From NCBI GenBank assembly GCA_040217195.1, contig JAVJNR010000008.1:512001-576000 (forward strand): DNA of 64,000 nucleotides, given 5' to 3'. Each line of letters starts with the position of its first letter. The stretch's first letter is position 1. The stretch comes from Leptospiraceae bacterium. GTDB taxonomy: Bacteria > Spirochaetota > Leptospiria > Leptospirales > Leptonemataceae. The position numbers were made by a program, and so were the translations under genes. Shown here piece by piece: positions 28,219-47,265 of this stretch. The notes beneath the pieces were generated by a model. The model did no database searches. It was not told the origin of the DNA and worked only from the letters and a program-made list of their open reading frames with translations.

Positions 28219-29097
28219 TTACTGTTCTACCGGCGGGAAAGATTGCAAATAGAGCCATAAAGCGTCCAACTCCACGTCCGTCATCTGGCTAAACGACGGC
28301 CACGGCATAGTGCGATCGAGCACTCGACCATCCGGACGTACCCCCTGCCGCATGGCTCTGAAAAACTCCTCTTTGCTCCATTTACCAATACCGTACTTTC
28401 TGTCGAAGGTGATGTTGGGTGCCCGAGGAGTACCCGGTGCTTCGCCCATCATCTTTTGCCCTCCAAGATCTACTCCGTGGCAATGGTGGCATCCCCGGGA
28501 TAGATATCGACCAAACTCTTCCGTTGGCTCCGCTTTCACAACCTTCGACGGATTGATGGCATGATTTATCCGCTCTACGGGTAGTGCACCAGGTAACCCG
28601 AGGGCGACCAGAAGAATGGGGCCCGGTCCAAGTTCGGTTCCGGGTAGTTCCTTATCTACCGCAGGAAGGGTGTTAATATAGGAAATGATCTTTGCGAGTT
28701 CGTCATCGCTCAAATGAGCGTATTCATTGGATGGCATGAAGGCCAGTGGTCTGCCGTCCTCTCCCACTCCATGCCGCACAGCCCGCACGATTTCAGCCGC
28801 TGTGGGTCTTCGGCTGCCGGCACCGCCCGTCAAATTCGGAACGACAAGGCGACCAATGAGAAAGCTTTCCCCGGTGATTTTACCCTCGAAGCCGCTCATA
28901 TGGCAATCAATACATTGCCTGGCAGAGTAAAGTCTCTTTCCTTCGGCCACCGATATGGCATCTGCGGGAATCTCGATATTATCCGCCGGAAAATCGTACA
29001 CCCGATGCATTCGCCAATAAGCAGTTCCATAAAGCGCCGCAGCCGCAATCAGTAGCACCGCGGCCGAACCCAGGATGATAGTTTGCAACGTTTTCAT
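28219..29097 (-). CDS. membrane-anchored diheme cytochrome c
   Basis: CIDCH and CHHCH; distal Met motifs FMPS and TMPW; PNLT/PNIT. Confidence 0.9.
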   Translation of the reverse strand: MKTLQTIILGSAAVLLIAAAALYGTAYWRMHRVYDFPADNIEIPADAISVAEGKRLYSARQCIDCHMSGFEGKITGESFLIGRLVVPNLTGGAGSRRPTAAEIVRAVRHGVGEDGRPLAFMPSNEYAHLSDDELAKIISYINTLPAVDKELPGTELGPGPILLVALGLPGALPVERINHAINPSKVVKAEPTEEFGRYLSRGCHHCHGVDLGGQKMMGEAPGTPRAPNITFDRKYGIGKWSKEEFFRAMRQGVRPDGRVLDRTMPWPSFSQMTDVELDALWLYLQSFPPVEQ

Positions 29098-30577: not shown

Positions 30578-33145
30578 CTATTTTAGAGCCACTCTGTCCT
30601 TTTCCAGACCCAGCTTATACTCTTTGTCTGTAGAGAAATCGCCTTTCAGGATAGCCTGGCTTAGAGTGTTTCCCACATCCTTTTGAATCAGTCGTTTCAG
30701 AGGTCGGGCACCGAATTGAGGATCGTAACCCTTCTTGGCCAGATGATTGATCAGTGTGCTTTCCACCTTCACATTCAGACCAGCCTCCCTGGCTCGCTGA
30801 ACAATCTTTCGAAGCTGTATCTTTACAATGTCCTTCAAAGCTTCCTCTGAAATTGGATGATAGTAGATAGTATCATCCAGTCGATTCAAGAACTCGGGAC
30901 GAAAAAATGTATGAAGCTCCTTTTCGATCAAAGCCTTCTTTTCTTTCTCGGATTTGGAGCTATCCATAAGATGATGGCTTCCAATGTTAGAGGTCATTAT
31001 GATTATGGTATTTTGAAAATCCACCATCCGGCCCTTGGAGTCCGTAAGTCTGCCATCATCGAATAGCTGCAAGAACAGATTGAATACATCCGGATGAGCC
31101 TTTTCCACTTCATCGAACAGAATTACCTGATAGGGCCTTCTACGCACAGATTCAGTGAGCTGACCGCCTTCATCGTATCCCACATATCCAGGAGGAGCAC
31201 CGATGAGTCGAGCCACAGCATGCTTTTCCATGTACTCTGACATATCGATTCGAAGCATTGCATTTTCATCGTCGAATAGAAACTTGCTCAAAGCCCGGGC
31301 AGTCTCGGTTTTACCTACCCCGGTGGGACCTACAAACATGAAAACTCCCACCGGCCGATTCGGATCGCTCAATCCACTTCGATTCCTTAAGATTGCTTCA
31401 CTTACTTCCTGAAGTGCATGGTCCTGACCTATGACTGTGGTTCTGAGTTGATCGAACATACCCAGAAGCTTTTCTTTTTCACCCTGCATCATTCTAGACA
31501 CAGGAATACCGGTCCATCGAGAGACTATGGTTGCGATGTCTTCATCAGTGACCTCTTCTTTCAGATACTGCTTCTTGCTCTCCTCAATCTTCTTTTCCAG
31601 GGCTTTAAGCATGTTTTCCAGAGTGACCAGCTTACCGTATCGGATTTCGGCCACTCGATTCAAATCACCAATTCGTTCTGCTTCCTTTTCCTGCATTCTC
31701 CAGGAATCGATTTCTTCGCGCAGGGACTTTGCTTTTTCCACATCCACGCGCTCAGCTTCCCAGACTCCTTTCTTGTTCATGAATTCTTCTTCAAGATTGG
31801 CCAGCTCTCGACCCACAACTTCGAGCCTTTGCTTGGATACTGGATCCTTCTCTTTTTTCAGAGCCTCCCTTTCGATCTTCAGAGACTGAATCTTCTTGGA
31901 TATGATATCCAGTTCTTCCGGAAGGGAATCCAGTTCGATGCGCATTTTACTCATGGCTTCATCGATTAAATCCACAGCCTTGTCCGGCAGGAATCGATCG
32001 GTGATATAGCGATTTGAAAGCTTGGCTGCAGCCACTAGAGCACTGTCAGTTACTCGAATACCATGATGCAGCTCATAACGGTCTTTCAATCCCCGAAGAA
32101 TGGTAACAGATTCCTCTTCAGAGGGCTCCTTGACATACACCGGCTGAAAGCGCCTTTCCAGAGCCTGATCTTTCTCAATGTATTTCTGATACTCTTTAAG
32201 AGTCGTAGCTCCAATACATCGTAGATCTCCTCGAGCAAGTGCAGGCTTGATCATATTGGATGCATCCAGGGAACCTTCAGCAGCACCAGCGCCAACAATG
32301 GTATGGATTTCATCTATAAAGAGGATGATTCTACCATCGGATCTCTGAACCTCATTAAGCAAAGCTTTGAACCGGTCTTCGAATTCTCCGCGATACTTGG
32401 CTCCTGCAATCATGGATCCCAGATCCAATGCATAGAGTTCTTTATCCAGCAGGCCTTCCGGTACTTCACCGGCTACAATCTTTCCGGCAAGACCTTCTAC
32501 AATGGCCGTTTTACCGGTTCCGGGCTCACCAATCAATATTGGATTGTTCTTCGTTCTTCGGCTGAGCACCTGCATGATTCGTCGAATCTCTTCATCTCGA
32601 CCAATCACTGGGTCCAGCTTACCTTTACGGGCTGAATCGTTCAGGTTTCTGGCATATTTGGACAGAGCCTCGATCGTATCTTCGGGGTTGTCATTTGTTA
32701 TGGGCTGACCGCCTCTCATTTCATTAACCGCCTGCTTGATCTCTTTTGGGTCCAGACCCAATCGTTTTAGTTCCCCGGTTAATTTCTGAGTATCATCTTC
32801 CAGATAGGCCAGGGCAATATGTTCCGTGGACAGATATTGATCGTCTCGATTCTTGGCGATCTTATCTGCCCTTTGAAGCAACTGGGCAAATCCCCTGGAT
32901 GGTCGGATTTCCATTTCGCCTTCGGCTCTGGGAAGTGTTCCAAGATGACCTTCCAGAAGTCCCAGCACTGTGCTTTGAGACACTCCCATCCTTTCCAGAA
33001 GCATGGGACCCATCCCTTCCTCCTGGCGGAATATTTCGTAGAGTAAATGCTCCGGCATTACCTCAGGATTTCCTCTTTCCTGTGCTATCTCCTGAGCATT
33101 TTCAATGGCCTCATGGGCTTTGGTTGTTAGTTTATCTAGTTTCAT
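30578..33145 (-). CDS. clpB: ATP-dependent disaggregase ClpB
   Basis: Two AAA modules ([16 protein letters not shown]), coiled-coil M-domain, [12 protein letters not shown] 33145 with AGGAG. Confidence 0.98.
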
Positions 33146-33706
33146 ATCATGGCTCCTGGCGCCTGGACTAAACCTTCTGGTATTCTTTCCATCATGCACA
33201 TATTCATCTCTGCAAAGAGATCTGAACTTATATCAATATTGCTTTGTATACTACCGCTCTGTTGCATACCAGCTTACCCGGGATGAACCCTGTATAACAT
33301 AGATCGGTGATGAGCTGAATGGTATGGCAATGCTCATACTGTAGTGTACTCTAACTCTGCTTCTAGCATTCGTTCATTCACCAGAGGCCTATCAGTCTCT
33401 TCCATCTTTGTTCTATACATAAGGCCATAGCAAGGAATGGACCAGGCTCTGACAATTGCATCGGGCGATCCCTGTGATTCTGAAGCAAAGTCATTGTCGA
33501 TTTGTCAGTGAGGTTGGAAACTCTGGCAGTTTCCATGTATTCTGAGATTGGTTCTCAACAAAAGGCAAAACCCGGAATTTTTACAGCAAAAGAATGCACG
33601 GCTGGCAGATTCTATTGACAGCCTCATTGCAAATCCATTCTTGTTCAAGGCGGGATCAGCGATCATCGCGGCGCTTCCGCCAATTTGGAAAAAGGGCACA
33701 GGCCAA

Positions 33707-34279
33707 ATGGCACCTCTTCTAAGAATCGCAAAGAAGCACGGAATCAAATTTGTATTACTCTTCGCTTTAATCGGCGCATTTGTGTACTTGTACGGAGTTA
33801 ATCCGAAGTATCAGGGATACGCTGCCGATCAACCCATCCCATTCAGCCACAAGATACATGCTGGGGAGCTTGGCGTAGACTGCCAGTTCTGCCACACTAG
33901 TGTGGACAAGAGTGCGATGGCAAGCGTACCGGACACAGCAACCTGTATGAAATGTCATGCATACGTTGCCTCCGACAGTCCGGATATTCAATACCTCCGA
34001 AAAACCTATGAAAAAGGGATCCCCATGCGCTGGAATAAAGTGCATGACCTCCCTGACCATGCAAAGTTTTCGCATAAGGTTCACATTGCCCGTGGCTATG
34101 ACTGCGCTCAATGCCATGGAAACGTTGCTGAAATGGACAAGGTGGAAGTAACCAGCGAGTTTAACATGGGCTGGTGTGTTAACTGCCACCGAGACCAGGC
34201 CAAGCAAATGAACCTGGATAAGGAGCCTGGAGGCAATCATAGCCTGGGCATTACCGACTGTAGCACCTGTCATTATTGA
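33707..34279 (+). CDS. actA: alternative complex III pentaheme cytochrome c subunit
   Basis: One TM; QPIPFSHKIH; five CxxCH (CQFCH, CMKCH, CAQCH, CVNCH, CSTCH); ATG 33707 with AAAGGG. Confidence 0.92.
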   Translation: MAPLLRIAKKHGIKFVLLFALIGAFVYLYGVNPKYQGYAADQPIPFSHKIHAGELGVDCQFCHTSVDKSAMASVPDTATCMKCHAYVASDSPDIQYLRKTYEKGIPMRWNKVHDLPDHAKFSHKVHIARGYDCAQCHGNVAEMDKVEVTSEFNMGWCVNCHRDQAKQMNLDKEPGGNHSLGITDCSTCHY

Positions 34280-34311
34280 GATCACTGGAAGGATCGACCT
34301 GGTTGGATTTC

Positions 34312-37300
34312 ATGGAAACAAAGAATAGAACTAGAAAATACTGGCAATCTCTGGAAGAGAGGAACGCTCCTCCTGCAGAGAACTATAAAGAGCCCGAGTT
34401 TGGCATGTCCAAGAATGAGATGGTTGCCGAACTCAAAAAGAAGCCCGTAAGCCGGAAGAACTTCCTCAAATTTATGGGTGCAGGCGCCGTTCTGGTGCAA
34501 GCCGCATGCCGCCGGCCCACCGAGCAAATCGTACCGGCTGTAATCCGACCGCCCGAGGATATTCCGGGCGAAGCAAACTATTACTCCACAGTAGCTCCCG
34601 ATGGAACCGGCCTGGTGGTTCGGACTTCGAATGCAAGGCCAAACAAGATTTCGGGAAACCCGGAACATCCGCTGACTAAAGGCGGAGTATCCAGTTATGA
34701 TGTGGCCAGCATTATGGATCTTTATGATCCTGATCGTCTGCGCAAGCCAGCCAGGCTTACGAACAGGAAAAAGAAACGAGCTTCCCGGGATGCCCTTATT
34801 TCCGAACTGCAAACCGAGATTAAGAAAGGCGATTATGTCCTGCTAACCGGTCCAATAGATAGTCCCACAAGCAAGAAGCTAATTCGAGACTTTCTAAACG
34901 CTAATCCCGGCGGAAAGCATGTAGAGTTTCGCGCGGACCCAACTCTTCGTCAAATCGCAGAGGGTCAGCGGGCCTCTTACGGCGAAGCACTGATTCCCTA
35001 CTATCGATTTGACCGTGCCAACCTTGTTCTGGCCATCGATGCAGACTTTCTGGGAACCATGGGATTCCCGGCCGCTCATACGGCGGATTTCACCAGCCGT
35101 AGGGATCCTACAAAAGGAAAACCGGCCAGGCTCATCGCCATTGAATCGATGTTCAGTCTTACAGGTTCCAACGCCGATATGCGAATCCCTGTTAAACCAG
35201 GGGATCAAACATCGGTAGCATTATCTCTGGCCGCGCACATTACCCTGAACCTTAAAGTGGGTCCTTATACTGGAAATGCCCAGGTCCGCGGACTTCTGGA
35301 GAACTACACTCCTGAACGAGTGGCCGAGGTGCTGAAACTGGAGCAAACAGCTCTGGAAAAAACAGCGGAAGAACTATGGTCCAATCGAGGGAAAGGACTG
35401 GTCCTGGGTGGATCGCCCTTGGCCGCCACCGGCCGTCAGGCAGCTCTTGGAATTGCCGTAAGTCTGCTAAATGACATTTGTGGCAACGACGGTATCACCG
35501 TAGACTACCGCAACTCATTGAACTACTCTGTAGGCATCTCTGCACCGGATATGCTATCTCTGCTGGCGGACTGTAAGGCGGGTAAAATCAAAACCCTGAT
35601 TGTGTCCGGCGCGAATATTCAGTATCATTTACCGGCCAGTGCTCAGGTAAAAGAGGCTCTGGCAGCCGTTCCATACGTTGCATCGATCAGCGATCGTATC
35701 GATGAAACGGCTAAACTTGGAAATGCAGTGCTTCCACTGAGTCATTTCCTGGAATCCTGGGGTGACCGAGAGGTAATCGGTGGTATTGCTGCCATTCAGC
35801 AGCCGACGGTTCGTCCCATCTTTGACTCTGCCAGCCTGGAAGACTATCTGATTCAAATCAGTGGTGGCACCCTGGGTGGATCTTCTGATTATCATAGCTA
35901 TTTGAAAGCGGCCTGGGCCGGACGTGGAGGCGCCAACTTCCAGAACTTCTGGGTGAAGATACTCCAGGACGGATTCTATGCTCCGGATGCTGGTAAGCTG
36001 AACGGAAATGCTCCAGCCCGTCGATTCAATGCAGGTTCTTTGAATAATCTGCCCAGAAGTGTGGATGAGAAGGACGGTCTGAAACTGGGTCTATTCATGG
36101 GAGTAGCCGTTCGAGACGGAAGTCAGGCAAACAATGCGTATCGCCTGGAACTTCCTGATCCAGTGACCAAGATCGTCTGGGAAAACTATGCTGCCATTCT
36201 TCCTTCTACGGCTCGCAAACTAAAACTGAAGCAAGGCTCTATTGTAAAAGTCAAATCAGGGGAAACCACTCTGGAACTTCCGGTGCACATGCAACCCGGT
36301 CTGCATCCGGATGCAGTACTGGTGGCCCTGGGCTACGGTCGCACGGAAGCAGGTAAGGTGGGCAACGACCGTGGTGTGAATGCCATTTCAGTGGCTACCA
36401 CCGGTGATGATTCTCTCACTCTTTCCGGTCATACGGTCACTCTGGAAAACACCGGAGACCGAAAGACTCTGGGCAATACTCAAACCGTGTATCGTACTGG
36501 AATGAATGAGCCAGACAACTTTCCTGGCATCTCCGACGATATTCCTTACGCTCCTTTTGCTGGCTCAACTCAGTATACCAAAGAGCAACGGCCCATCATT
36601 ATGGAAGCCAGCTATAGCGAGTATAGCAAAGCGAAGGGCTTCCTGAATGAGTATACTGTAAAGCATCCTCAAAATGCACAGCTCATGGAAGCCTGGAAGT
36701 ATGAGAACCTCCGCTGGCATATGGTGGTGGATCTCTCCAAATGTACAGGTTGCGGTTCCTGTGTGACCAGCTGTAATCTTGAAAATAATATTCCTATGGT
36801 TGGCCCGGAAGAGGTATCTGTAGGTAGAGAAATGCACTGGTTGCGAATCGACCGCTATTACAGCGGATCGGAAGAAAACCCCGCGGTAAGCCATCAGCCC
36901 ATGCTATGCCAGCAGTGCGAGAATGCTCCCTGCGAAAATGTATGCCCTGTGGCAGCTACCACCCATAATTCGGAAGGTCTAAATGTAATGACCTATAACC
37001 GTTGTGTAGGAACCAGATACTGCGCCAACAACTGCCCCTACAAAGTGCGCCGCTTTAACTGGTTTGAGAACTGGTATTATATGGAAGGTCTGGAGCGCAA
37101 ACTCCGTGATCCAATGCAGCTGGGACTGAACCCCAACGTAACCGTTCGATCCAGAGGGGTTATGGAGAAGTGTACTTTCTGCGTGCAAAGGATTAATGCG
37201 GCTCGCCAGGATATGAAAGTCCGGGGCGATAAAAGAATCAAAGATGGCACGGTAGTAACGGCCTGTCAGGAAGTTTGCGGTGCTGGAGCCATCACATTCG

Positions 37301-37434
37301 GCGACATCAACGATAAATCCTCGGCTGTATATCAGCTGGCTGAAAAAGACAAGAGAAGATACCGCGTCCTGGATTTTCTGGGTGTGGCACCTTCGGTGAC
37401 CTATCTTGCGAAGATTCGCAATCCCATGGCTTAA
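34312..37434 (+). CDS. actB: alternative complex III molybdopterin-oxidoreductase-like/Fe-S subunit
   Basis: YWQSLEE leader, Tat-like SRKNFLK, lipobox AAC; LYDPDR; Fe-S motifs CTGCGSCVTSC, CQQCENAPCENVCP, CVGTRYCANNCP, CTFC..CQEVC. Confidence 0.95.
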   Translation: METKNRTRKYWQSLEERNAPPAENYKEPEFGMSKNEMVAELKKKPVSRKNFLKFMGAGAVLVQAACRRPTEQIVPAVIRPPEDIPGEANYYSTVAPDGTGLVVRTSNARPNKISGNPEHPLTKGGVSSYDVASIMDLYDPDRLRKPARLTNRKKKRASRDALISELQTEIKKGDYVLLTGPIDSPTSKKLIRDFLNANPGGKHVEFRADPTLRQIAEGQRASYGEALIPYYRFDRANLVLAIDADFLGTMGFPAAHTADFTSRRDPTKGKPARLIAIESMFSLTGSNADMRIPVKPGDQTSVALSLAAHITLNLKVGPYTGNAQVRGLLENYTPERVAEVLKLEQTALEKTAEELWSNRGKGLVLGGSPLAATGRQAALGIAVSLLNDICGNDGITVDYRNSLNYSVGISAPDMLSLLADCKAGKIKTLIVSGANIQYHLPASAQVKEALAAVPYVASISDRIDETAKLGNAVLPLSHFLESWGDREVIGGIAAIQQPTVRPIFDSASLEDYLIQISGGTLGGSSDYHSYLKAAWAGRGGANFQNFWVKILQDGFYAPDAGKLNGNAPARRFNAGSLNNLPRSVDEKDGLKLGLFMGVAVRDGSQANNAYRLELPDPVTKIVWENYAAILPSTARKLKLKQGSIVKVKSGETTLELPVHMQPGLHPDAVLVALGYGRTEAGKVGNDRGVNAISVATTGDDSLTLSGHTVTLENTGDRKTLGNTQTVYRTGMNEPDNFPGISDDIPYAPFAGSTQYTKEQRPIIMEASYSEYSKAKGFLNEYTVKHPQNAQLMEAWKYENLRWHMVVDLSKCTGCGSCVTSCNLENNIPMVGPEEVSVGREMHWLRIDRYYSGSEENPAVSHQPMLCQQCENAPCENVCPVAATTHNSEGLNVMTYNRCVGTRYCANNCPYKVRRFNWFENWYYMEGLERKLRDPMQLGLNPNVTVRSRGVMEKCTFCVQRINAARQDMKVRGDKRIKDGTVVTACQEVCGAGAITFGDINDKSSAVYQLAEKDKRRYRVLDFLGVAPSVTYLAKIRNPMA

Positions 37435-37456: not shown

Positions 37457-38851
37457 ATGGCCAATAATACAGAAACCCTGGAAAAAGTAGAACTCGTACA
37501 AGGTAATAAGAGCTACGGCGATGTTAATCAGGACATTACACGCCCTCTTGATACATTTCCCGAGAAATGGTGGTGGGGCGCTTTTGCAGTAGCTCTGGGC
37601 CTACTGACCCTGCTGATTGTGGAAATCGGCTATTTGATCGCAGTCGGCATGGGCGTAGTTGGTGTGAACGTTCCGGTAAGCTGGGGTTCCTTTATTATCA
37701 CGTTCGTTTTCTGGATCGGTATTGGACATGCCGGTACATTGATTTCTGCAATTCTGTATATTTTCCGACAGGAATGGAGAACGGCTGTAAACCGTTCCGC
37801 TGAAGCCATGACAATCTTTGCCGTGGCCTGTGCAGGTATTTATCCGCTAATTCACGTTGGTCGCCCCTGGTTTACATTCTGGTTGTTTCCTTACCCGAAT
37901 GAAAGAGGAACTCTCTGGCCAAACTTCCGTTCTCCGCTTCTGTGGGACCTATTTGCTATTTCTACATATTTGACCATCTCCCTGGTATTCTGGTACATGG
38001 GACTGATTCCTGACTTTGCTTCCGTTCGGGACAAAATCAAAGGCGGGGAATGGTTCAACAAGTTGCGAAAGAACCTCTATTCCGTGCTGTCTATGGGCTG
38101 GGTGGGCTCCGCCCGAGCCTGGTCGCATTATGAAACCACAGCTATGATTCTGGCTGGTCTTTCTGCACCACTGGTTCTTTCCGTTCACACAATTGTATCT
38201 TTTGACTTCGCCACCTCCGTAATTCCTGGATGGCACACCACAATCTTCCCGCCCTACTTTGTGGCCGGGGCGATTTTCTCCGGATTCGGAATGGTGCTTA
38301 CTCTCCTGATCCTCATGCGTGAGCTGTTTGGCTTTAAAGAATACATCACCGTAAAACACCTGGAGAATATGGCCAAGATTACCATGCTCACCGGGACACT
38401 GGTGGGTCTGGCCTATGCCACGGAGTTCTTTATCGCATGGTATTCCGGCTCCAAGTTTGAAGGTTTCGCATTCATCAACCGGATGCTCGGGCCTTACTGG
38501 TGGTCCTACTGGATCATGGTATCCTGTAATGTAATTTCCCCGCAGCTATTCTGGTTCAAGAAAATCCGGACCAATCCTGCAGCACTGTGGATTATCAGTA
38601 TCTTCGTAAACATCGGAATGTGGTTCGAGCGTTACGTGATTGTAGTAACCAGTCTGCATAGGGACTACCTCCCTTCGAGCTGGGATCTATATATCATGAC
38701 GATTCATGACTTTGGAATTCTAATTGGTTCCTTTGGATTGTTTTTCACTCTGTTCCTGCTCTTCATGAGGTTCTTTCCTACCATCGCTATGGCAGAGATT
38801 AAAACAGTAATGAAAAGCCCTGGAGCCCGTGGCTACGGCGGAGGCCATTAA
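37457..38851 (+). CDS. actC: alternative complex III quinol-binding NrfD/PsrC-family subunit
   Basis: [58 protein letters not shown]. Confidence 0.96.
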
Positions 38852-38875: not shown

Positions 38876-39565
38876 ATGGAAAAGCTAAACGCTATGACAG
38901 AAAAACTGGAACAATTCTTTGACCGGTTCTTTGAGAAGCAATACGTAGCCTTCCGGAACATTCTGGACAAGGCTTTCGAATACACTTACCGGGAAACCGA
39001 AAAGGGAGTATTCGGACTGTTCAACACACCGGAGCAAATCTCGGATGCTGCAAAGAAAACAAAAGAAAAGGGATTTACGAACTTCGATTGCCTGACTCCA
39101 TTTCCGGTGCACGGCCTGGAGTTTGACATGGGCTTCAAACGCTCCAGGCTCCCTTACGTAACATTCTTTGCAGGACTCACCGGGTTCACCATTGCATTCC
39201 TGCTCCAATTCATCGTACATGAGCAGGTGATCAATTATACCATTACCCGCGCCATCGATGCATACCCGAACCTGAACTCCTATCCTCTGAATATTGGTGG
39301 GAAACCTACTTATAGTTGGCCGGCCATGATTCCTATCTGCTTTGAGCTAACTATTCTTTTTGGCGGACTGGCAACGGTGGCTGGATTGTTTATGATTTCC
39401 CGAATCCCCAGGCCATTCCGGAGGATTCTGCATCCTTCTATTACTGATGATAAATTCTGTCTCTGGATCCCGGAAGACTCAGCCAACTACGATGAAGAAG
39501 GCGTGAAGTCCTTTCTTCAAGAAATGGGTGCTGAGGAAATCACTTCGGTTAAGGAGTCGGCGTAG
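38876..39565 (+). CDS. actD: alternative complex III subunit D (DUF3341)
   Basis: TPFPVHGL, NIGGKP..SWPAMIPICFELTILF, TDDKF. Confidence 0.93.
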   Translation: MEKLNAMTEKLEQFFDRFFEKQYVAFRNILDKAFEYTYRETEKGVFGLFNTPEQISDAAKKTKEKGFTNFDCLTPFPVHGLEFDMGFKRSRLPYVTFFAGLTGFTIAFLLQFIVHEQVINYTITRAIDAYPNLNSYPLNIGGKPTYSWPAMIPICFELTILFGGLATVAGLFMISRIPRPFRRILHPSITDDKFCLWIPEDSANYDEEGVKSFLQEMGAEEITSVKESA

Positions 39566-39577
39566 CCCGGAAATACC

Positions 39578-40219
39578 ATGATCGACAAGGCAACGAATAT
39601 GAATCCCGTTTCCCGCATTATTACTCTGGCCATCTCTTCTGTGGCACTTGTGTTCGTAGCACAGTGCAATTTCGCAGGGAATCAGTCCGGTATCCATTTC
39701 TTTCTGGATATGCATGATTCTCCGGCAGTAGAATCCCAGGAAGAGGATCCCAGCACCCTGGATGAAGCTTACGAAGGTAACTACGAAAAAACCATGGGCT
39801 CGCTGGAATCCTGGGGCGGTCCGGGCTCCACGGCTCGTACAGCTCCAGAAGGCACTGTGCCCAGGAACAAAACACCGTATTTGATTCCGGCCGCAGACTT
39901 TGATCAGGCTGCGAAAATGAATAACCCGCTGCGCCCTACCAAAGAGGTGCTTGAACTGGGTCAGAAGAAATACAATACGTATTGTGCCGTTTGCCATGGC
40001 AACACCGGCATGGGCGATGGACCGGTAACTCCGCGATTCGCTGATATTCCTGCTCTGGTAGGAGACGAATCACTGGTACTGAACTGGGAAGACGGTAGAA
40101 TCTTCCATATCATTACCGTTGGCCGAGCCCGTATGCGGCCTTATGCAGCTCAGACTACAGAAAAAGAGCGATGGGCCATCATTCATTATATAAATCTGCT
40201 TCAGAAGCAGGGACAGTAG
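39578..40219 (+). CDS. actE: alternative complex III monoheme cytochrome c lipoprotein
   Basis: Lipobox VAQC, DMHDSP, PEGTVPR, CAVCHG, RMRPYA, ERWAIIHYI. Confidence 0.93.
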   Translation: MIDKATNMNPVSRIITLAISSVALVFVAQCNFAGNQSGIHFFLDMHDSPAVESQEEDPSTLDEAYEGNYEKTMGSLESWGGPGSTARTAPEGTVPRNKTPYLIPAADFDQAAKMNNPLRPTKEVLELGQKKYNTYCAVCHGNTGMGDGPVTPRFADIPALVGDESLVLNWEDGRIFHIITVGRARMRPYAAQTTEKERWAIIHYINLLQKQGQ

Positions 40220-40237
40220 AAACAGGAACGATTATCT

Positions 40238-41479
40238 ATGGCAGCAAATCTGGAACAGGACAAACTGAAGTTTGAATTCCCTCCCCGGCTGAAGCAAATC
40301 AGTCTGGCTTTGATAGCGCTGGGACTGATTCTCACAGTGGCGCAGATTTTCGTACCCTGGCACGGTCATGGAGAGCATGTGCCGGGACACAACCCCAGAC
40401 TATTTCTTTCTATCCTCCTGGCTGTTCTGGTATTCTTACCTGTGGCTGTGGGCGGTATCTATTTCACGGCCCTGCATCATGCATCCGGCGCGGCCTGGAG
40501 TGTATCTGTACGGCGAATCGCAGAATCCTATTTCTGGTTTTTGCCTGTAATTCTTCTGGCTCTAGTCGCAGTATTCTTTGGACTCGGTGATGCGTATCAC
40601 CACTGGGTGGGAAAAGCTGCAGAAGACGAACTGATTCAATGGAAAGCTCCGTATCTGGATCAGACTTTCTTCATTGTAAGAAATCTTATTATCATCGGAA
40701 TCTGGATTTTCTTTGGCCTTCTATTCTGGAAGAAATCCACAGCCCAGGACAATGATGGAAAGGTATCTCATACCAAATCCATGATCAAATGGTCCGCAGG
40801 ATTTCTAGTTCTTTTTGGTCTTACATTCTCCGTTAGCTCCTGGGATCTTTCCATGAGTCTGGAGCCTCACTGGTTTTCTACAATGTGGGCCGTCTACATT
40901 TTCGCAGGTCTTGCTCTAACAACATTCGCATCCCTGATTCTCTGGGTGAACTATCTGAAAGGCCGGGGACTACTGGGCGATGCAGTGAATGAAAATCATA
41001 TTCACGATCTGGGAAAATATCTATGGGGCCATACGATCTTCTGGGCCTACATTGGAATCTGTCAGTATCTTCTGATCTGGTACGCACATATTCCAGAAGA
41101 GACCTACTTTTACAACAATCGACTGTTCACAGATGAAATGGGCTTCAACTCCTGGAGCTGGGTAAGCCTGGGACTTCTGGTTCTTCGATTCTTTATTCCT
41201 TTTTTCGCACTGCTAAAACGTGAGAACAAACGTAATATTAAGTTTCTGTCTGTCATCGCCTGGATTGTAATTCTGGGACAGATCGTAGATATGTACTGGG
41301 TGGCCTACCCAACCCTGGAACATGATGCTTCATTTGTCATGTTTTCCTGGCAAGAACTGGGCCCCCTTCTGGCGCTGGGTGGAGCTTTCATATTCGTTGT
41401 GGGCTCTGCTCTAACAAGAGCTAACCTGGTGCCTGTAAAGGATCCCAAGCTGGAAGAATGTCTGCACATGCACCAATAG
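40238..41479 (+). CDS. actF: alternative complex III membrane subunit F
   Basis: WSVSVRRIAE, WDLSMSLEPHWFSTMW, HIHDLGK, QYLLIWYAHIPEET. Confidence 0.93.
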   Translation: MAANLEQDKLKFEFPPRLKQISLALIALGLILTVAQIFVPWHGHGEHVPGHNPRLFLSILLAVLVFLPVAVGGIYFTALHHASGAAWSVSVRRIAESYFWFLPVILLALVAVFFGLGDAYHHWVGKAAEDELIQWKAPYLDQTFFIVRNLIIIGIWIFFGLLFWKKSTAQDNDGKVSHTKSMIKWSAGFLVLFGLTFSVSSWDLSMSLEPHWFSTMWAVYIFAGLALTTFASLILWVNYLKGRGLLGDAVNENHIHDLGKYLWGHTIFWAYIGICQYLLIWYAHIPEETYFYNNRLFTDEMGFNSWSWVSLGLLVLRFFIPFFALLKRENKRNIKFLSVIAWIVILGQIVDMYWVAYPTLEHDASFVMFSWQELGPLLALGGAFIFVVGSALTRANLVPVKDPKLEECLHMHQ

Positions 41480-41505
41480 GAATGTTTAGAGGGAAAGCGA
41501 AAGAG

Positions 41506-42075
41506 ATGCAATCCAACAAGTATATCATATCTGGAATCCTGATTCTGGCAGCAGCGGCCTGCGGAAAGGAGCCTGCGCCCATCTACAAGGCAACTGCAGA
41601 CAGCCTGTACAATGGATCTGTCTACTACGCAAGTTCCGAGTACAACTGCAAGAGTTGCCATGGCATCGCCTGGGATGGCAATGGCCCGGAAGCAAAAGGC
41701 CTGAAAGAACAGGGAATTGAAGTACCTTCTTTTACAGATGCCACCTCCCCGGAAGTAACTCCCGTGGATTATTTCAAGGCCATGACCGTAGGAACTGAAA
41801 AGACCACTGATCTTCCTTCAGGCCATGCGTATCAATCCCATACAGACCGGGGACGTTGGGCCATGGCTCATTACCTGTATTCTCTGGCTCCTCCGGTTTC
41901 TTCCAAAGACAAGGCCAAACGCGAAGAAGCCATCCATGCAGCCATGGAAGAGGTTAAGCAAGCCTATGCCAGCAGTCGTCGCTGGAATATGGGTTTCACT
42001 CCGCTAAAGGAAAGACCTCAACCTCCCAAACTTGAAGAGATGAGTGGATTCAATCCTGCACCGGCAGAAGAGTAA
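41506..42075 (+). CDS. monoheme cytochrome c lipoprotein
   Basis: Lipobox AAAC; CKSCHG..GNGPEA; RWAMAHYLYSL class I C-terminal helix. Confidence 0.88.
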   Translation: MQSNKYIISGILILAAAACGKEPAPIYKATADSLYNGSVYYASSEYNCKSCHGIAWDGNGPEAKGLKEQGIEVPSFTDATSPEVTPVDYFKAMTVGTEKTTDLPSGHAYQSHTDRGRWAMAHYLYSLAPPVSSKDKAKREEAIHAAMEEVKQAYASSRRWNMGFTPLKERPQPPKLEEMSGFNPAPAEE

Positions 42076-42099: not shown

Positions 42100-43584
42100 A
42101 TGAAACTACTGAGTAACGACTACAATCGAACAACAGGGCTTTATCTGATCATCTCCACTCTATGGCTCCTTCTGGGCGTTGCCATCCGCGTGGTGAACGA
42201 GATTCAGATGATCACCTTCATGCCCGGACCGGATTCCTATTTTTCCTACGGATATCTTCGTCCGGTGGGTTCCAATCTGCTGATCTTTGGCGGATTGCTG
42301 GGCTACTTTTTCGCCCTTGGATATCAAATCATTCATGCTAGAGCAGGCTTTCGCATTGACCTGGCAGGTCTTGCAGCCCTGGGAGCTCATCAAACGGCCC
42401 TTCTATTTGGAATAATTACCATCTTTGCTGGCTACAATTCCGGTCGAGAATATGGTGAGCTGAACTGGATCGCCGACAACCTGATGATGGTTGTATTCAC
42501 TGTATTTCTGGTCCTACTACTAATTGCACTATGGGGCAAAGAAGATCTAAAGGCCTATGAAAAGCTTACGGCTGCTACCATAGGCGGGATGATGGTTTTC
42601 TATTTCCTGGGTAACTTTGGCATGCCCAATGGTCTTCTGGTGACCACGGCCCCAACATCCGGAGCCCAGGATGCTCTGGTTGCTGAAATGTATCGGAACG
42701 CAGTGCTTACGTTCTTCATTCTGTTCCCTCTGTTTACTATGGGATACTACTGGCTGGAAAAGCATTATGAACTTCCGGTATTCAGTGAGGCCACGGTACA
42801 TTTTCAGATCCTGGCCGGAGCTGTGATGGTGCCTGTGGCCGCCGGTGGCACTTTACTGGGCACAGCCGATGCCAAAATTCTGCAGTATGTGGGCACTGGT
42901 GCAGCCCTGGCTCTGACCATGTCTTTGCTTGCGGGAGTAGCCAATATTCATTATTCTCTGTCTCGAAGCGGTAAGATCATTGAGTCCGACCAGGATGGAA
43001 AAGCTCTTCGCTGGGGTCTGATTCTGGTGGGTGTTTACCTTGCGGTCCGATTTGTGCTACAGATTCCTCTGATTGGATCTGACTTTCGCTACATGGCCTG
43101 GAATAACCAGGACCTGTATTCTCTGGCCGCCACGGCAGTACTACCTCTGGCCCTGGCATCAGCCTATTTGCTGCTGGGCTACTGGAAACAAGCTTCCACT
43201 CCTTCGAAGCTAAAGTCCTTCGGTAATTTCTTTCTCTATACTGGTATCATAACCTTTCTGGGTGCAGCGCTGACCCAGGGTTGGATTCAGGCCCTGAATG
43301 CTTCTTCGCTGGCCGGAGAAGGCGCAGAAAAAGCTCTGGAAAATCCAGCCTGGGCACAGGTTCTCTTCGCAGGTAGCCTGGAATCAGAAGTAGGAAAGGA
43401 TGCACTATTCAGTTATCTGTATTCTGTATATGGATTTGTATTAATCGGGCTAATCATGACTTTTATCGGTGCTCTGGCCGGCGTTTTGGCCGTGCTGGCA
43501 GGTTTGTCCGGAAAAGCGGCGGCTTATAGTCGCCCGAGCATGGTGAGTGAGGCCCCGGTGGCCCAGTCTGCCCAATCGCATTGA
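42100..43584 (+). CDS. cbb3-type oxidase subunit I (CcoN) homolog lacking all heme and CuB ligand histidines
   Basis: About 12 TMs; CcoN-like SYGYLRP, REYGELNW, GAQDALV, YYW..K...PVFS, VHF; ligand positions read G, N, GT, DLY. Confidence 0.85.
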   Translation: MKLLSNDYNRTTGLYLIISTLWLLLGVAIRVVNEIQMITFMPGPDSYFSYGYLRPVGSNLLIFGGLLGYFFALGYQIIHARAGFRIDLAGLAALGAHQTALLFGIITIFAGYNSGREYGELNWIADNLMMVVFTVFLVLLLIALWGKEDLKAYEKLTAATIGGMMVFYFLGNFGMPNGLLVTTAPTSGAQDALVAEMYRNAVLTFFILFPLFTMGYYWLEKHYELPVFSEATVHFQILAGAVMVPVAAGGTLLGTADAKILQYVGTGAALALTMSLLAGVANIHYSLSRSGKIIESDQDGKALRWGLILVGVYLAVRFVLQIPLIGSDFRYMAWNNQDLYSLAATAVLPLALASAYLLLGYWKQASTPSKLKSFGNFFLYTGIITFLGAALTQGWIQALNASSLAGEGAEKALENPAWAQVLFAGSLESEVGKDALFSYLYSVYGFVLIGLIMTFIGALAGVLAVLAGLSGKAAAYSRPSMVSEAPVAQSAQSH

Positions 43585-43603: not shown

Positions 43604-44272
43604 ATGAATTCTCCGTTCAAAACAGTATCTTCTACCGTTGTTACCACCGTGGTGGCCGGGCTTGTTGCTTTCGCAGCCAGTATCGTGCTACCATTTGGAG
43701 CTCCCGATTTGCATGGAAAGCACCAGTATACGCAAGCTCCTGAAGACATTCTGGTTCTAAAAGGTCAGGAAGTCTACTATCAGGAAGGATGCCAGTACTG
43801 CCATAGCCAGGGAATTCGAGCCCAGGCCTGGGAGGTTCTGCGCTTTAGCGATACAGAAAAGCTGGGGTACTATCCAGCTCCCCAGAAGCAGGCAAATCTG
43901 TTTTTTACTCCTTCCGTGCAGGGCTCCACTCGCATTGGTCCTGATCTTTCGCACATTGGACTGAAGATGGATAAATCGGCGCTCAGGGCTCTGCTCCAGA
44001 GTGATCCGTATCAGAATCCCAGGAATCCTCAGTTTGATATGCGAACGGGAAATCATAACTACACGTATCTCTTCTCCCAGGATGAGCTGGATGCCCTGGC
44101 CCTGTCCTGGAAAGTGCGCTGGATGATGAACTTCGGCCTTCCGCTGAATGATCCCTATCAGCGCTCTGCATTCTCCAGACTGGAGGATCAGACTCGAGGA
44201 GATGCTCTGGTGGAATATCTGAACTTCCTGGGAAGCCGACAGGCTGCTTACGATGGAGAGTTCTACCAATAA
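43604..44272 (+). CDS. ccoO: cbb3-type oxidase subunit II (CcoO) homolog, monoheme
   Basis: GQEVYYQEGCQYCHSQGIR, GSTRIGPDLSHIG, DALVEYLNFLG; ATG 43604 with AAGGA. Confidence 0.88.
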   Translation: MNSPFKTVSSTVVTTVVAGLVAFAASIVLPFGAPDLHGKHQYTQAPEDILVLKGQEVYYQEGCQYCHSQGIRAQAWEVLRFSDTEKLGYYPAPQKQANLFFTPSVQGSTRIGPDLSHIGLKMDKSALRALLQSDPYQNPRNPQFDMRTGNHNYTYLFSQDELDALALSWKVRWMMNFGLPLNDPYQRSAFSRLEDQTRGDALVEYLNFLGSRQAAYDGEFYQ

Positions 44273-44830: not shown

Positions 44831-44910
44831 CTTAGTAGGCTCAGTCAAATCGCATAAGAAGATCAAAATAGTCGCCAGGCCATTCTCCTGGCAGCAATGG
44901 GATCAAATTG

Positions 44911-44938
44911 AAAGCCGTGTTTTCTAGCACGGCTTTTT
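44911..44938 (+). terminator. intrinsic terminator closing the act-cco operon (possibly bidirectional with recJ)
   Basis: aaagccgtgt-tttcta-gcacggcttt followed by tt. Confidence 0.75.
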
Positions 44939-45030: not shown

Positions 45031-47265
45031 CTAGCCAGCATTCACTGCCGAAACAGTCTTTGCACCGGCTGTAGCGGCAGATTCTTCACTGTTCTTAAAA
45101 AGAGGACTGTCCAGGTCCTGAATCACAAACTGAAACTTAGAGCGCTTTTTGCCTCCCCGGAATACATCCGCCTCCAGGGTGCCCAGTATCCAGTCCACAG
45201 GTATTTGAAGACCGGAAACGGTTCCTCTGGCTTCGGATTCCTGTCCTGACTGCAAAATCATCGTCTGAATAAGTCCACCTCGATTCCAGAGTACACCACG
45301 TACGGTTCGATTACCCTGCAGCGTAATCTGAGCATGGAGCCCACCAGACATGAATTTAACCTCTGTTATCACTGTGTTTTGAATTCTGAATATTGGTTCT
45401 GGATTTCCCGGACCAAAGGGCTCCAGAAATTCCATTTGCTCATAGATCTGCTTGTTCAGTGCAGAAAGTGGCAGATCCACCACCAGACCTTCGCGCACCG
45501 AATGCTCCTCTCCATTCCAACCGGTAGATTCCAACAGTGAATCCATATGAGTTAATAGAGCACCTTCAATAAATTCCAGAGCCTCCCGCTCCAGGGAGAA
45601 GCCCGCCGCTTCTGGATGGCCTCCATATTGGAGTAAATGATCGGACACTCCTTCCAGAATAGAAAGTGCACTCAAACCACCAAAGCTTCGCACGGATCCT
45701 CGAACTCTTTCTCCATCGGGATTCATATAGACCACTGGCCTGCGATAGCGTTCCATGAGTCGACTGGCTAGAATGCCGGACACTCCGGGCTCCAGCCGAT
45801 CATCATAACAGACGATTAGGGGAGCTGTGGTTTTTTCCGGATCCTTTTCCAGAAGTTCTTCTAGTATGGATTGATTCCTTCGCGTACGATCCTTGCGCTT
45901 TTCATTCAGTCTTACAAGTTTGCGAGCCAGGGCACTGGCATCTTCCGGACTGGAGCTACAGAGTAAATCCAGGGCAAGCTCCGTTTCACCCATTCGGCCT
46001 GCCGCATTCAGTACAGGACCAATCTTCCATCCGAAGTCTCGACCGGACCAGTCCGTTCGATCTATTCGCAAAGCTGAATAAAGGGAATCCAGCCCGGGCC
46101 GAAATTCCGGTTCAGGAATAACACTGCCCAATAGAGTATTCAATCGCATACCCAGGCGAGCCACTACTCGATTCTCTCCCAGGAGAGGTACCATATCTGT
46201 AACAAGACCGATGGCAGCCAGATCGGAGTGTTCTACCATGAATTCCAGAAGCCGAGGTCGTTGCATTACAGCGGATGCGAACAGATATTGCCCGGCTCGC
46301 AATCGACCTTCTTCGCTTTCCACCCATGGACTGCAATTCATGCGACTTTCATCCACCAGTTCCTCTTCCGTAATCCTTTGAATGTCTGGTTGAATGTTCA
46401 TTATTCCGTTTAGGGCCAGCGGAGGCTGAATCTCTTTCTCCGCCATGAATTGGCCCATAGAGAGAAGGGATTGCTCCAGCTGTTGTTTGGCCAGGGACTC
46501 ATCAGCGGGCAGCGAAGCTGGCAACAAATCCCTTACTTCTGATGGAAGCACACTGGACGATGGATCTACCGAAGAATGCAAAAAGGCACCGGTCCGGTAC
46601 AGATTATAACTTCCATCCTTGCTGGCCAGAATTTCCACTCGGTTCCACAGAGCAGTATGGGAAAGTGCATAGGCAATTAGCAGTTTATAAACCAATCCCA
46701 CAGTGGCGATCTTTCCTCTATGTTCCAGACTTTCGCAGTAAGGTAATAACCTTGGGTTGATAAAGGCGCAGTAGGGAATACCCTGAGGATCGGAGATAAC
46801 ATGGTGATCCAGAACGATAACCCTTTTACCCGCATCCAGAACTTGCTGTATCTCGCTTAAGTGAGCGCTTCCCATATCCATGAGAATGACCAGGGGCGCT
46901 CTGGATGCGATAATCCTGTCCAGAAAGCTACCTGCAAGGCCGTAATCATCCCCTTCGCTGGAGACCAGGGTATCGACCAGGGCCACTTCCGGACCGGTTC
47001 TTTGATCCAGAAATCGGTGTAGCAATGCCGTTGAGGTAACTCCATCCACGTCCCGGTCTCCTACAAGTAAGATGGGAGACTGCTTTTGAATGGCATCATC
47101 CAGGTATTGAACGGCCAGAGCCATTCCAGGAAGGGATAAGGGACTGTGCATCACCGGATACTCTACAAAAAAGTCCGGATCGTTCAGATGCTCATAGGCA
47201 GAGTTGGCTTTTAGAGACTCCACCAGGTTTTTTCCGTCGGTTGAAATGCTATCCATCGGTTCCAC
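45031..47265 (-). CDS. recJ: single-stranded-DNA-specific exonuclease RecJ with internal insertion
   Basis: GDRDVDGVTS, DMG, LDHH, INP, DMVPLLGENR, GPVLNAAGR, RGSVRS, GGHPEAAGF, EPFGPGNPEP. Confidence 0.93.
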   Translation of the reverse strand: MEPMDSISTDGKNLVESLKANSAYEHLNDPDFFVEYPVMHSPLSLPGMALAVQYLDDAIQKQSPILLVGDRDVDGVTSTALLHRFLDQRTGPEVALVDTLVSSEGDDYGLAGSFLDRIIASRAPLVILMDMGSAHLSEIQQVLDAGKRVIVLDHHVISDPQGIPYCAFINPRLLPYCESLEHRGKIATVGLVYKLLIAYALSHTALWNRVEILASKDGSYNLYRTGAFLHSSVDPSSSVLPSEVRDLLPASLPADESLAKQQLEQSLLSMGQFMAEKEIQPPLALNGIMNIQPDIQRITEEELVDESRMNCSPWVESEEGRLRAGQYLFASAVMQRPRLLEFMVEHSDLAAIGLVTDMVPLLGENRVVARLGMRLNTLLGSVIPEPEFRPGLDSLYSALRIDRTDWSGRDFGWKIGPVLNAAGRMGETELALDLLCSSSPEDASALARKLVRLNEKRKDRTRRNQSILEELLEKDPEKTTAPLIVCYDDRLEPGVSGILASRLMERYRRPVVYMNPDGERVRGSVRSFGGLSALSILEGVSDHLLQYGGHPEAAGFSLEREALEFIEGALLTHMDSLLESTGWNGEEHSVREGLVVDLPLSALNKQIYEQMEFLEPFGPGNPEPIFRIQNTVITEVKFMSGGLHAQITLQGNRTVRGVLWNRGGLIQTMILQSGQESEARGTVSGLQIPVDWILGTLEADVFRGGKKRSKFQFVIQDLDSPLFKNSEESAATAGAKTVSAVNAG

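Follow-up and report, generated by a model that had tools for sequence, protein, structure and literature searches.

The window analysed here, a stretch of 64,000 nucleotides from a Leptospiraceae bacterium (contig JAVJNR010000008.1 of assembly GCA_040217195.1, positions 512,001 to 576,000 of the forward strand), carries a ten-gene same-strand cluster in which an alternative complex III (ACIII) operon continues into a module of the cbb3 oxidase type. Neighboring genes of this cluster overlap or are separated by gaps of no more than 54 nt. Its eighth gene, which we call psN and which is the subject of this analysis, occupies positions 42100..43584 on the plus strand, begins with ATG and encodes 494 amino acids (aa) without an internal stop. 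The product is a homologue of CcoN, subunit I of cbb3 oxidases, that is left without any haem or copper ligand.

psN has no Pfam match at E ≤ 0.01, and with the NCBIfam ccoN model (TIGR00780) it scores no more than 60.6 bits, the curated cut-off being 583.15. Compared with solved CcoN chains by phmmer, it matches 9g6b_A with an E-value of 2.6e-12 and 3mk7_A with 3.3e-9. An AlphaFold2 (AF2) model based on a 38-member family alignment shows 12 long helices, with a predicted local distance difference test score (pLDDT) of 88.5 and a predicted template-modelling score (pTM) of 0.90. Searched with Foldseek, this model finds cbb3 CcoN chains first (3mk7_A and 8smr_E; E 6e-17, template-modelling (TM) score 0.82-0.88), with the nitric oxide reductase subunit NorB (TM 0.70) and subunit I of the A and B families ranking below, so that the 12-helix transmembrane fold of haem-copper oxidase (HCO) subunit I is recognizable in psN. 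The original prediction, made from the sequence and a list of its reading frames, had described a full-length CcoN homologue of 494 residues with about 12 transmembrane helices and had suggested superposing a model on a cbb3 structure; reading frame, phmmer, AF2 and Foldseek all support the description, and the superposition yields the TM scores given for 3mk7_A and 8smr_E. It was also correct in separating psN from NorB, since the NorB of the same genome (L004, 456 aa) keeps its His motifs, psN has none of NorB's six His, and the model fits CcoN better. An ESM Atlas search returned generic COX1 clusters only and added nothing. Judged from its predicted fold and these matches, psN is a true CcoN homologue and not a chance match.

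The ligand columns were read from three alignments, namely HMMER to 3mk7_A/9g6b_A, MAFFT, and hmmalign to a hidden Markov model of 58 canonical Leptospirales CcoN. They agree throughout, the sole difference being V or P (P244) at the column of the cross-linking Tyr. G57 stands at the first haem b His (RPLHTN) and Y340 at the second (GHVH), D338 at the proximal His of haem b3 (GHVH), N200 at the first CuB His (WWYGHNAV), and a gap or G250 together with T251 at the CuB His-His pair. The whole protein contains six His only, none of them at a ligand column. The replacement of all six His ligands and the Tyr, first proposed from a manual comparison, is thus confirmed at every column, hmmalign included. 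The elements that had been listed as retained, the loop REYGELNW, the segment YY..K...PV.S and the motif VHF, are likewise found in the HMMER alignment, where REYGELNW aligns to KEYAELEW and GYYWLEKHYELPVFSEATVHF to its canonical counterpart. As a member of the CcoN family, psN therefore has the fold and the CcoO partnership, the latter partly by prediction (see below), and lacks five of the defining features, the family score and the ligands among them.

Thirty-five of 36 genome-derived psN open reading frames (ORFs) show no His at the six ligand columns; the exception has a single one, at an ambiguous column. In 36 full-length representatives (at least 380 aa; P0010-P0046, E 1e-18 to 1e-88) the cross-link Tyr is always missing, and P0042 alone has a ligand-column His, at one CuB column. 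The members of the 38-member alignment contain between 0 and 13 His, one of them none at all, and at any given column a His is shared by at most 20 rows. As psN has no conserved His, Met or Cys, the known mode of binding haem b, haem b3 or CuB is closed to it, and reduction of O2 or NO by psN appears very unlikely, if not excluded. The haem b columns are occupied by F, Y, G, A, S and similar residues, with Tyr or Phe in most members at the first and S, G or A in most at the second, and the CuB columns by A, G, S, N or T. At the b3-His column, 34 of the 38 members have D or N (31 D, 3 N; MAFFT). It is conceivable that haem or metal is still bound by unconventional ligands such as Tyr, Asp or Met, with some redox or catalytic role: the aromatic residue at the first haem b column and the conserved D338 would be candidates, and a metagenomic lineage described below, in which Tyr has taken the place of the b3 His and both haem b His are kept, demonstrates that intermediates exist. 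We consider this very improbable, because no candidate ligand is conserved family-wide, the second haem b column and the CuB columns hold mostly the residues just named, and one member lacks His altogether. At the C-terminus (positions 43570-43584 in the window), 14 of the 38 members end in ..GAH or ..SH.

To define the distribution of psN, we relied on an exhaustive phmmer search over 1.84 billion cluster representatives, which returned 103 matches at E ≤ 1e-3, of which 31 reach E ≤ 1e-30; representatives weaker than E ~1e-12 are mostly canonical CcoN. Four named psN members belong to Leptospirales-type metagenome-assembled genomes (MAGs). NCBI lists one homologue, P0012, as "cbb3-type cytochrome c oxidase subunit I", the kind of automatic mislabelling that the original prediction had anticipated; others carry the label "hypothetical protein". 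A word-indexed protein search with the family alignment gave only 9 proteins, all found before. At the level of the phylum, a psN profile matched 74 of 401 genomes. Since this profile also matches canonical CcoN at 215-240 bits, the window genome's own canonical copy included, family members were counted at E ≤ 1e-75, above the scores of canonical CcoN. Profile matches from the sister family were examined as possible psN and rejected: all 29 inspected loci have all four His motifs and represent canonical CcoN. With the stricter threshold, 40 of 156 Leptospirales genomes contain psN, in every case without an internal stop. It occurs in 40 of the 42 genomes of the window's family, the window genome included (21 genera), and in none of the 114 genomes of the sister Leptospirales family. 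Completeness is 58% and 76% in the two family genomes that gave no match.

The organism has another CcoN. A canonical protein with all seven residues (P0113, 613 bits) is encoded on contig 10 of the window genome within a ccoNOQP cluster, and an A-type CoxI and a norCBQ cluster are present as well. With canonical ccoNOQP on another contig, psN represents an additional, divergent paralogue rather than the oxidase of the organism. Canonical CcoN was found in 35 of the 42 genomes of the family. It is absent from four genomes that do have psN (G405, G408, G409 and G411; 83-94% complete, one consisting of a single contig), and these contain an A-type CoxI only. On this basis, the idea that psN depends on a working cbb3 oxidase was rejected; psN does not serve a resident cbb3 oxidase.

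We then asked whether psN is maintained by selection. Between the window and four close relatives (73-89% identity), dN/dS, the ratio of nonsynonymous to synonymous substitution rates after Nei and Gojobori, is 0.044-0.053, inside the range of the nine neighboring operon genes (0.010-0.121); dS exceeds 1 and is saturated, so that these values are rough, with dN still far below dS. At greater distances, psN diverges far more rapidly than the surrounding genes. Median identity to the window over the same 14 genomes is 32% for psN versus 76% for canonical CcoN, and over such distances ActC keeps 72-82% and ActF 52-60% identity. These comparisons indicate that psN is under purifying selection, with a constraint that is strongly relaxed but not absent. 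The low identity and the failed family cut-offs would also fit a decaying pseudogene or an annotation artefact. This explanation has next to no probability left and is already contradicted by the open frame in 40 of 40 genome matches from 21 genera, the dN/dS of about 0.05 and the confident model, in agreement with the selected pseudo-enzyme that was originally proposed in place of decay. True ccoN pseudogenes of the same family do carry stops: three additional canonical-like ccoN copies (G425:C1:3528958-3530325, G423:C128:2640-4004 and G415:C1:52781-53659), probably true pseudogenes, have one or two internal stops each.

The cluster around psN comprises the following features, all on the plus strand:

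33548..34279: ActA, multihaem cytochrome c of ACIII, 243 aa, several CxxCH motifs
34276..37434: ActB, fused molybdopterin-like and 4Fe-4S subunit of ACIII
37457..38851: ActC, NrfD-type membrane subunit (Pfam NrfD, 8e-24)
38876..39565: ActD (Pfam PF11821 ActD, 6.5e-54, 182.5 bits)
39578..40219: ActE, monohaem cytochrome c (CAVCH) with a lipoprotein-like N-terminus (Cytochrome_CBB3, 3.8e-12)
40238..41479: ActF, second polytopic membrane subunit, no Pfam match, named by position and length
41458..42075: cytX, cytochrome c (CKSCH) with a lipoprotein-like signal, overlapping the end of ActF by 22 nt (weak match to Pfam Cytochrom_C, 1.5e-3)
42100..43584: psN, ligand-less CcoN homologue
43604..44272: psO, CcoO-like monohaem cytochrome c (CQYCH) with an N-terminal transmembrane helix
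44327..44830: cytY, membrane-anchored monohaem cytochrome c, CcoP-domain-like (Cytochrome_CBB3, 1e-13)
44910..44937: terminator-like hairpin (stem of 12 pairs, then a T run) 80 nt past the cytY stop, closing the operon

Based on gene order and the ActD model, the first six genes are the ACIII genes ActABCDEF. The name ActA was given by its place in this order and not by a family model; colinear orthologues with 57-94% identity are found in 19 of 23 related loci. ActB matches Fer4_7 (5.7e-13) and, both under the curated cut-off, Molydop_binding (9e-6) and Molybdopterin (7e-3) of Pfam; in NCBIfam it is QrcC/QrcB-like, and the model TIGR04519 for a variant of the twin-arginine translocation (TAT) signal scores above its cut-off. 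ActC is 72-98% identical across the related loci, and ActF is colinear in 23 of 23 (49-93% identity). An alternative GTG start of psO at 43547 would make it overlap with psN, and cytY scores under the cut-off of the NCBIfam ccoP model (7.3e-9). On the minus strand, recJ converges on the end of the operon at 45031. Upstream of the ACIII operon, also on the minus strand, lie an ORF of 292 aa with two CxxCH motifs (28219-29097; dihaem cytochrome c-like) and, between this ORF and the operon, a ClpB-like ORF (30578-33199). The C-terminus of ActC (38839-38851 in the window) reads ..G[YF]GH in 19 of 20 true ActC ORFs of the related loci, a 21st row, L086, having been left out as a mis-assigned ActF, and that of ActF (41459-41479) reads ECLHxH[QH] in most of the 23 loci.

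For the synteny analysis, the 23 related loci were taken from family genomes (19 loci, L070-L088) and from four public MAG contigs. ActD-ActE-ActF-cytX-psN-psO-cytY is colinear in all 23, and all ten operon genes are found in 19. One locus ends at a contig end, and in three, all of genus g160 (L074, L079 and L086, from genomes G409, G410 and G408), ActABC is not upstream; here, an ActC with 77-78% identity is encoded either far away or on a different contig. The psN module thus stays with ActDEF even where the operon is split. ActD was found in 150 of 156 Leptospirales genomes. In the sister family, ACIII ends after ActF in the four loci examined, unrelated genes follow ActF in the one locus scanned there, and the canonical ccoN-ccoO-cytochrome c cluster is located away from ACIII. 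A supposed case of ACIII beside canonical ccoN in this family was rejected, because the 420-aa ORF next to ccoN is not ActF.

This close linkage could mean that psN is a pure supercomplex adaptor, which joins ACIII to an aa3-type oxidase or stabilizes ACIII without passing electrons through a chain held by psN. According to PMC5928083, ACIII of Rhodothermus marinus forms a supercomplex with the caa3 oxidase, and ACIII gene clusters frequently precede oxygen-reductase clusters. An aa3-type CoxI was present in five of five genomes checked, and the ActDEF-psN linkage survives the relocation of ActC. The haem motifs that psO and cytY retain in 23 of 23 loci and the predicted docking of psO would, however, be needless for a mere spacer, and the aa3 genes lie outside the operon (contig 4 versus contig 5). 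We therefore regard the pure adaptor as unlikely.

Directly downstream of psN, a FixO-family gene (psO) is present in 23 of 23 loci. psO reaches 60.9 bits with the Pfam FixO model (PF02433; 1.6e-16, cut-off 29.6), matches CcoO chains of the PDB at 1e-12 and has both the CxxCH motif and the hydrophobic N-terminus of CcoO/FixO proteins. Its CQYCH or a variant is kept in all 23 loci. CxxCH is equally invariant in cytY and in cytX; cytX has a single motif in 9 loci, the window's four close relatives among them, and two motifs in 14. Monohaem cytX proteins (the window's genus and some others) have about 205 aa and dihaem ones about 270-335 aa, all with a lipoprotein-like signal ending in Cys. psO shares 33% and cytY 30-35% identity with the CcoO and the third subunit of the sister family, compared with 29% and 25% to the canonical CcoO and CcoP of their own genome, a slight gap that is not decisive for the origin of psN. 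In solved CcoO, the segment ..KMPAY.. contains a Met that we take to be the sixth, axial haem ligand. T or N occupies this column in psO, and an invariant His (H151) follows one to three positions downstream, according to the alignment used, in 19 of 19 psO; the canonical CcoO of the same genome (P0114) has Met-Pro in the axial Met segment. The psO sequences thus suggest a bis-His haem of lower potential.

Structure prediction places psO on psN with an ipSAE interface score of 0.91 in three runs, compared with 0.00 for the best of three controls; of the solved complexes, 116 of 157 attain this mark, as do 2 of 215 mismatched pairs. At least 91% of the contacts are common to the runs, and the pLDDT of the partner is at least 78. 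On the side of psN, the predicted interface includes the GYNSGRE loop, residues 183-195 and D338. Of the 49 residues most conserved in psN, 17 fall within it where 9.5 would be expected (Fisher p 0.007). Positions with a conservation above 0.6 are more frequent in the periplasmic half of psN (80 of 267) than in the cytoplasmic half (32 of 227). The Glu pair of the (K/R)EYxEL loop is kept in 33 and 37 of the 38 members (MAFFT), and R116, E120, N172, D191 and Y198 are each at least 87% conserved.

The same pattern raises the question of a new, non-redox activity, in which psN would be a cation-binding module, a proton- or ion-conducting module or a sensor acting through E117, E120, D126, D191 and D338; ion or proton conductance had been put forward for testing with the original prediction. 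These acidic residues lie on the periplasmic half and might add to the energy conservation of ACIII, and the strong conservation of the D/N column, the Glu pair and the residues listed above would fit such a site. We know of no ion-transport function for a cofactor-less HCO fold, and the residues in question lie in or near the predicted psO interface, which offers a simpler account of their conservation. An activity of this kind therefore also seems rather improbable.

Because selection maintains the loop that docks CcoO along with the periplasmic face and the fold, and the partners keep their haem c, we read psN as a scaffold. In this proposal, psN is a catalytically dead, cofactor-free descendant of CcoN that retains the 12-helix fold and the periplasmic CcoO-docking surface and would serve to hold c-haem subunits on ACIII as an electron exit module. 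It would fix psO, and probably cytY, beside ACIII in the membrane. ACIII would take electrons from menaquinol, which would leave through a fixed c-haem chain with psO, cytY and the lipoprotein cytX; their acceptors would be the real terminal enzymes, the aa3-type oxidase and, where present, cbb3 or the nitric oxide reductase cNOR. We infer the attachment to ACIII, the relay, its direction and the identity of the acceptors, and give the proposal as a whole a probability of roughly 0.55.

A number of observations weigh against it. The tie between psN and ACIII is one of gene order (23 of 23 loci), psN members are known from genome and metagenome sequences, and the sister family runs ACIII without a psN module, which means that ACIII does not need it. 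Since CcoN-CcoO complexes have already been solved, the predicted psN-psO complex shows likeness, and maybe recall, but is no proof of binding. Canonical CcoN would display a similar periplasmic bias in conservation, so that this bias is only consistent with a scaffold, and the enrichment of conserved residues in the modelled interface is modest. Structure predictors leave cofactors out, which makes unconventional binding compatible with the models. The near-invariant Asp/Asn at the b3-His position, together with the Glu pair, hints at a selected site beyond a pure scaffold. Finally, if the psO haem is indeed bis-His and of low potential, a simple downhill relay to the oxidases would be less obvious.

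Among the matches of the representative search were also CcoN and fused CcoN-CcoO proteins that come from other lineages and have lost their ligands in part or completely. P0074, one such protein of 497 aa without any of the seven residues, was used as the query of a metagenome scan that returned 80 loci (L122-L201), which were scored by hmmalign. The full HHYHHHH set is present in 17 loci (e.g. L124 and L139), and two, L122 and L123, are without any ligand. In 55 loci, including L141, L146, L147, L161, L195 and L196, one or both haem b His are kept in a pattern of the type HN[AS]QR[YFW][HY]: the first CuB His is replaced by N, the Tyr by A or S, the His pair by QR (or TR) and the b3 His by Y, F or W. 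Among the 22 metagenomic loci longer than 12 kb, ActA-F is located directly upstream in 16 and at least ActF in two more. L122 has the same architecture as the window: ActABCDEF, a small ORF, the ligand-less CcoN, a FixO-like gene and a cytochrome c gene. The haem-b-only CcoN of L146 likewise precedes FixO-like and cytochrome c genes. This clade derives mostly from soil and freshwater.

Phylogenetic trees were calculated in two quick searches with support from the Shimodaira-Hasegawa-like approximate likelihood ratio test (SH-aLRT) only, and their long branches make artefacts possible. In both, psN forms a long-stemmed clade (stem 1.9-2.2) outside the canonical Leptospirales clade and outside the metagenomic ACIII-linked clade; in one of them, the psN clade (SH-aLRT 100, stem 2.2) is placed with mainstream CcoN at weak support. 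In this tree the metagenomic sequences group together (SH-aLRT 100), the haem-b-only group being nested among them, apart from Leptospirales psN. The occurrence of the same operon and of graded loss in an unrelated metagenomic lineage makes ligand loss a recurrent event. With the caveat of long branches, the catalytic center of ACIII-linked CcoN was lost at least twice, and in one lineage apparently stepwise.

In addition, nine fused CcoN-CcoO proteins of 650-930 aa (P0055, P0059, P0064, P0069, P0075, P0083, P0089, P0097 and P0102) have lost some or all ligand His and show strong Pfam COX1 and FixO scores. Some members of their clusters come from Rubripirellula/Rhodopirellula or "Pseudomonadota bacterium" MAGs and are annotated as cbb3 oxidase subunits. 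Five to seven of the fused proteins fall with mainstream CcoN in the trees, and one tree groups them as a single clade (SH-aLRT 97).

More tentatively, and with less confidence than in the scaffold itself, we suggest that ACIII-coupled cbb3 modules constitute an unrecognized class of "pseudo-oxidases". The dead subunit I would have become a permanent ACIII subunit with a fixed c-haem exit wire, the CcoO and cytochrome c genes being kept in both lineages, and might possibly have gained a site for ions or cations at the cluster of conserved Asp/Glu residues. Within the metagenomic lineage, the order of events would run from the full set of ligands to the haem-b-only state, with the CuB His replaced by N and QR and the b3 His by Tyr, and from there to no ligand at all.

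Compared with cbb3 oxidases (CcoN-CcoO-CcoP; 3mk7, 8smr, 9g6b), the module shows the same 12-helix fold, (K/R)EYxEL loop, predicted interface between subunits I and II, and gene order of subunit I, CcoO-like monohaem cytochrome c and membrane-anchored cytochrome c. Unlike them, it forms the tail of an ACIII operon, psN lacks the six His and the Tyr, and psO has an invariant His adjoining the position of the missing axial Met. A cofactor-less enzyme fold used as a structural module would already be part of ACIII, whose ActB has the fold of molybdopterin oxidoreductases and is said to be without the Mo cofactor; the Molybdopterin family matches of ActB in the window are weak, and both fold and subunit differ from those of psN.

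An HCO-type module right behind ActABCDEF is also described for the ACIII-oxidase operons and supercomplexes of Rhodothermus marinus (PMC5928083) and Flavobacterium johnsoniae (PMC8552683). The proposed module shares with the ACIII-caa3/aa3 supercomplexes the idea of a direct hand-over from the c haems of ACIII to an attached partner, but is derived from the C family, has a dead catalytic subunit and leaves the real oxidases to be encoded elsewhere. PMC8552683 further states that ActE is dispensable for transfer to aa3, with another, unidentified acceptor being proposed, and that a third haem in CcoP of Neisseria gonorrhoeae diverts electrons from the oxidase center. There too, c haems of a cbb3 module serve other acceptors and leave the CcoN center unused; the Neisseria oxidase is active, however, whereas the by-pass would be the sole route in the case of psN. 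Losses of single cofactors are listed in a 2024 survey (PMC11214002): qNOR's N-terminal domain is without the haem c motif, subunit II of gNOR and subunit II of bo3 are without CuA, and the active-site His are completely conserved in the superfamily except in gNOR, which has Asp for one His. In these cases as in psN, an ancestral redox site is gone and fold and partner interactions are kept, but there the loss concerns a site in an accessory subunit or one ligand and the catalytic center survives, whereas in psN the catalytic subunit has lost all of them and the accessory subunits keep their haems.

Our literature search found neither a ligand-less subunit I nor an operon of this type described, and the supplements of PMC11214002, which it did not cover, could list such sequences. 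Passages of PMC5492636, PMC10732223 and PMC8407424 make no mention of ligand loss. psN is thus a pseudo-enzyme form of HCO subunit I within known kinds of cbb3 module and ACIII operon, and is apparently undescribed in print.

The presence of ccoN is widely taken as a marker of microaerobic, high-affinity respiration. With 55 of 80 ACIII-linked relatives lacking the CuB ligands, inferences of this kind can be wrong, and if the suggested class of pseudo-oxidases is real, many soil and marine metagenome genes annotated as high-affinity cbb3 oxidases would not encode oxidases. Subunit I of haem-copper oxidases is among the most conserved catalytic scaffolds in respiration. That psN has lost all six His and the Tyr and is yet under selection across 21 genera indicates that this scaffold can persist as a pseudo-enzyme, and the CcoN-anchored c cytochromes encoded in the same operon would be a concrete candidate for the exit route of electrons from ACIII.

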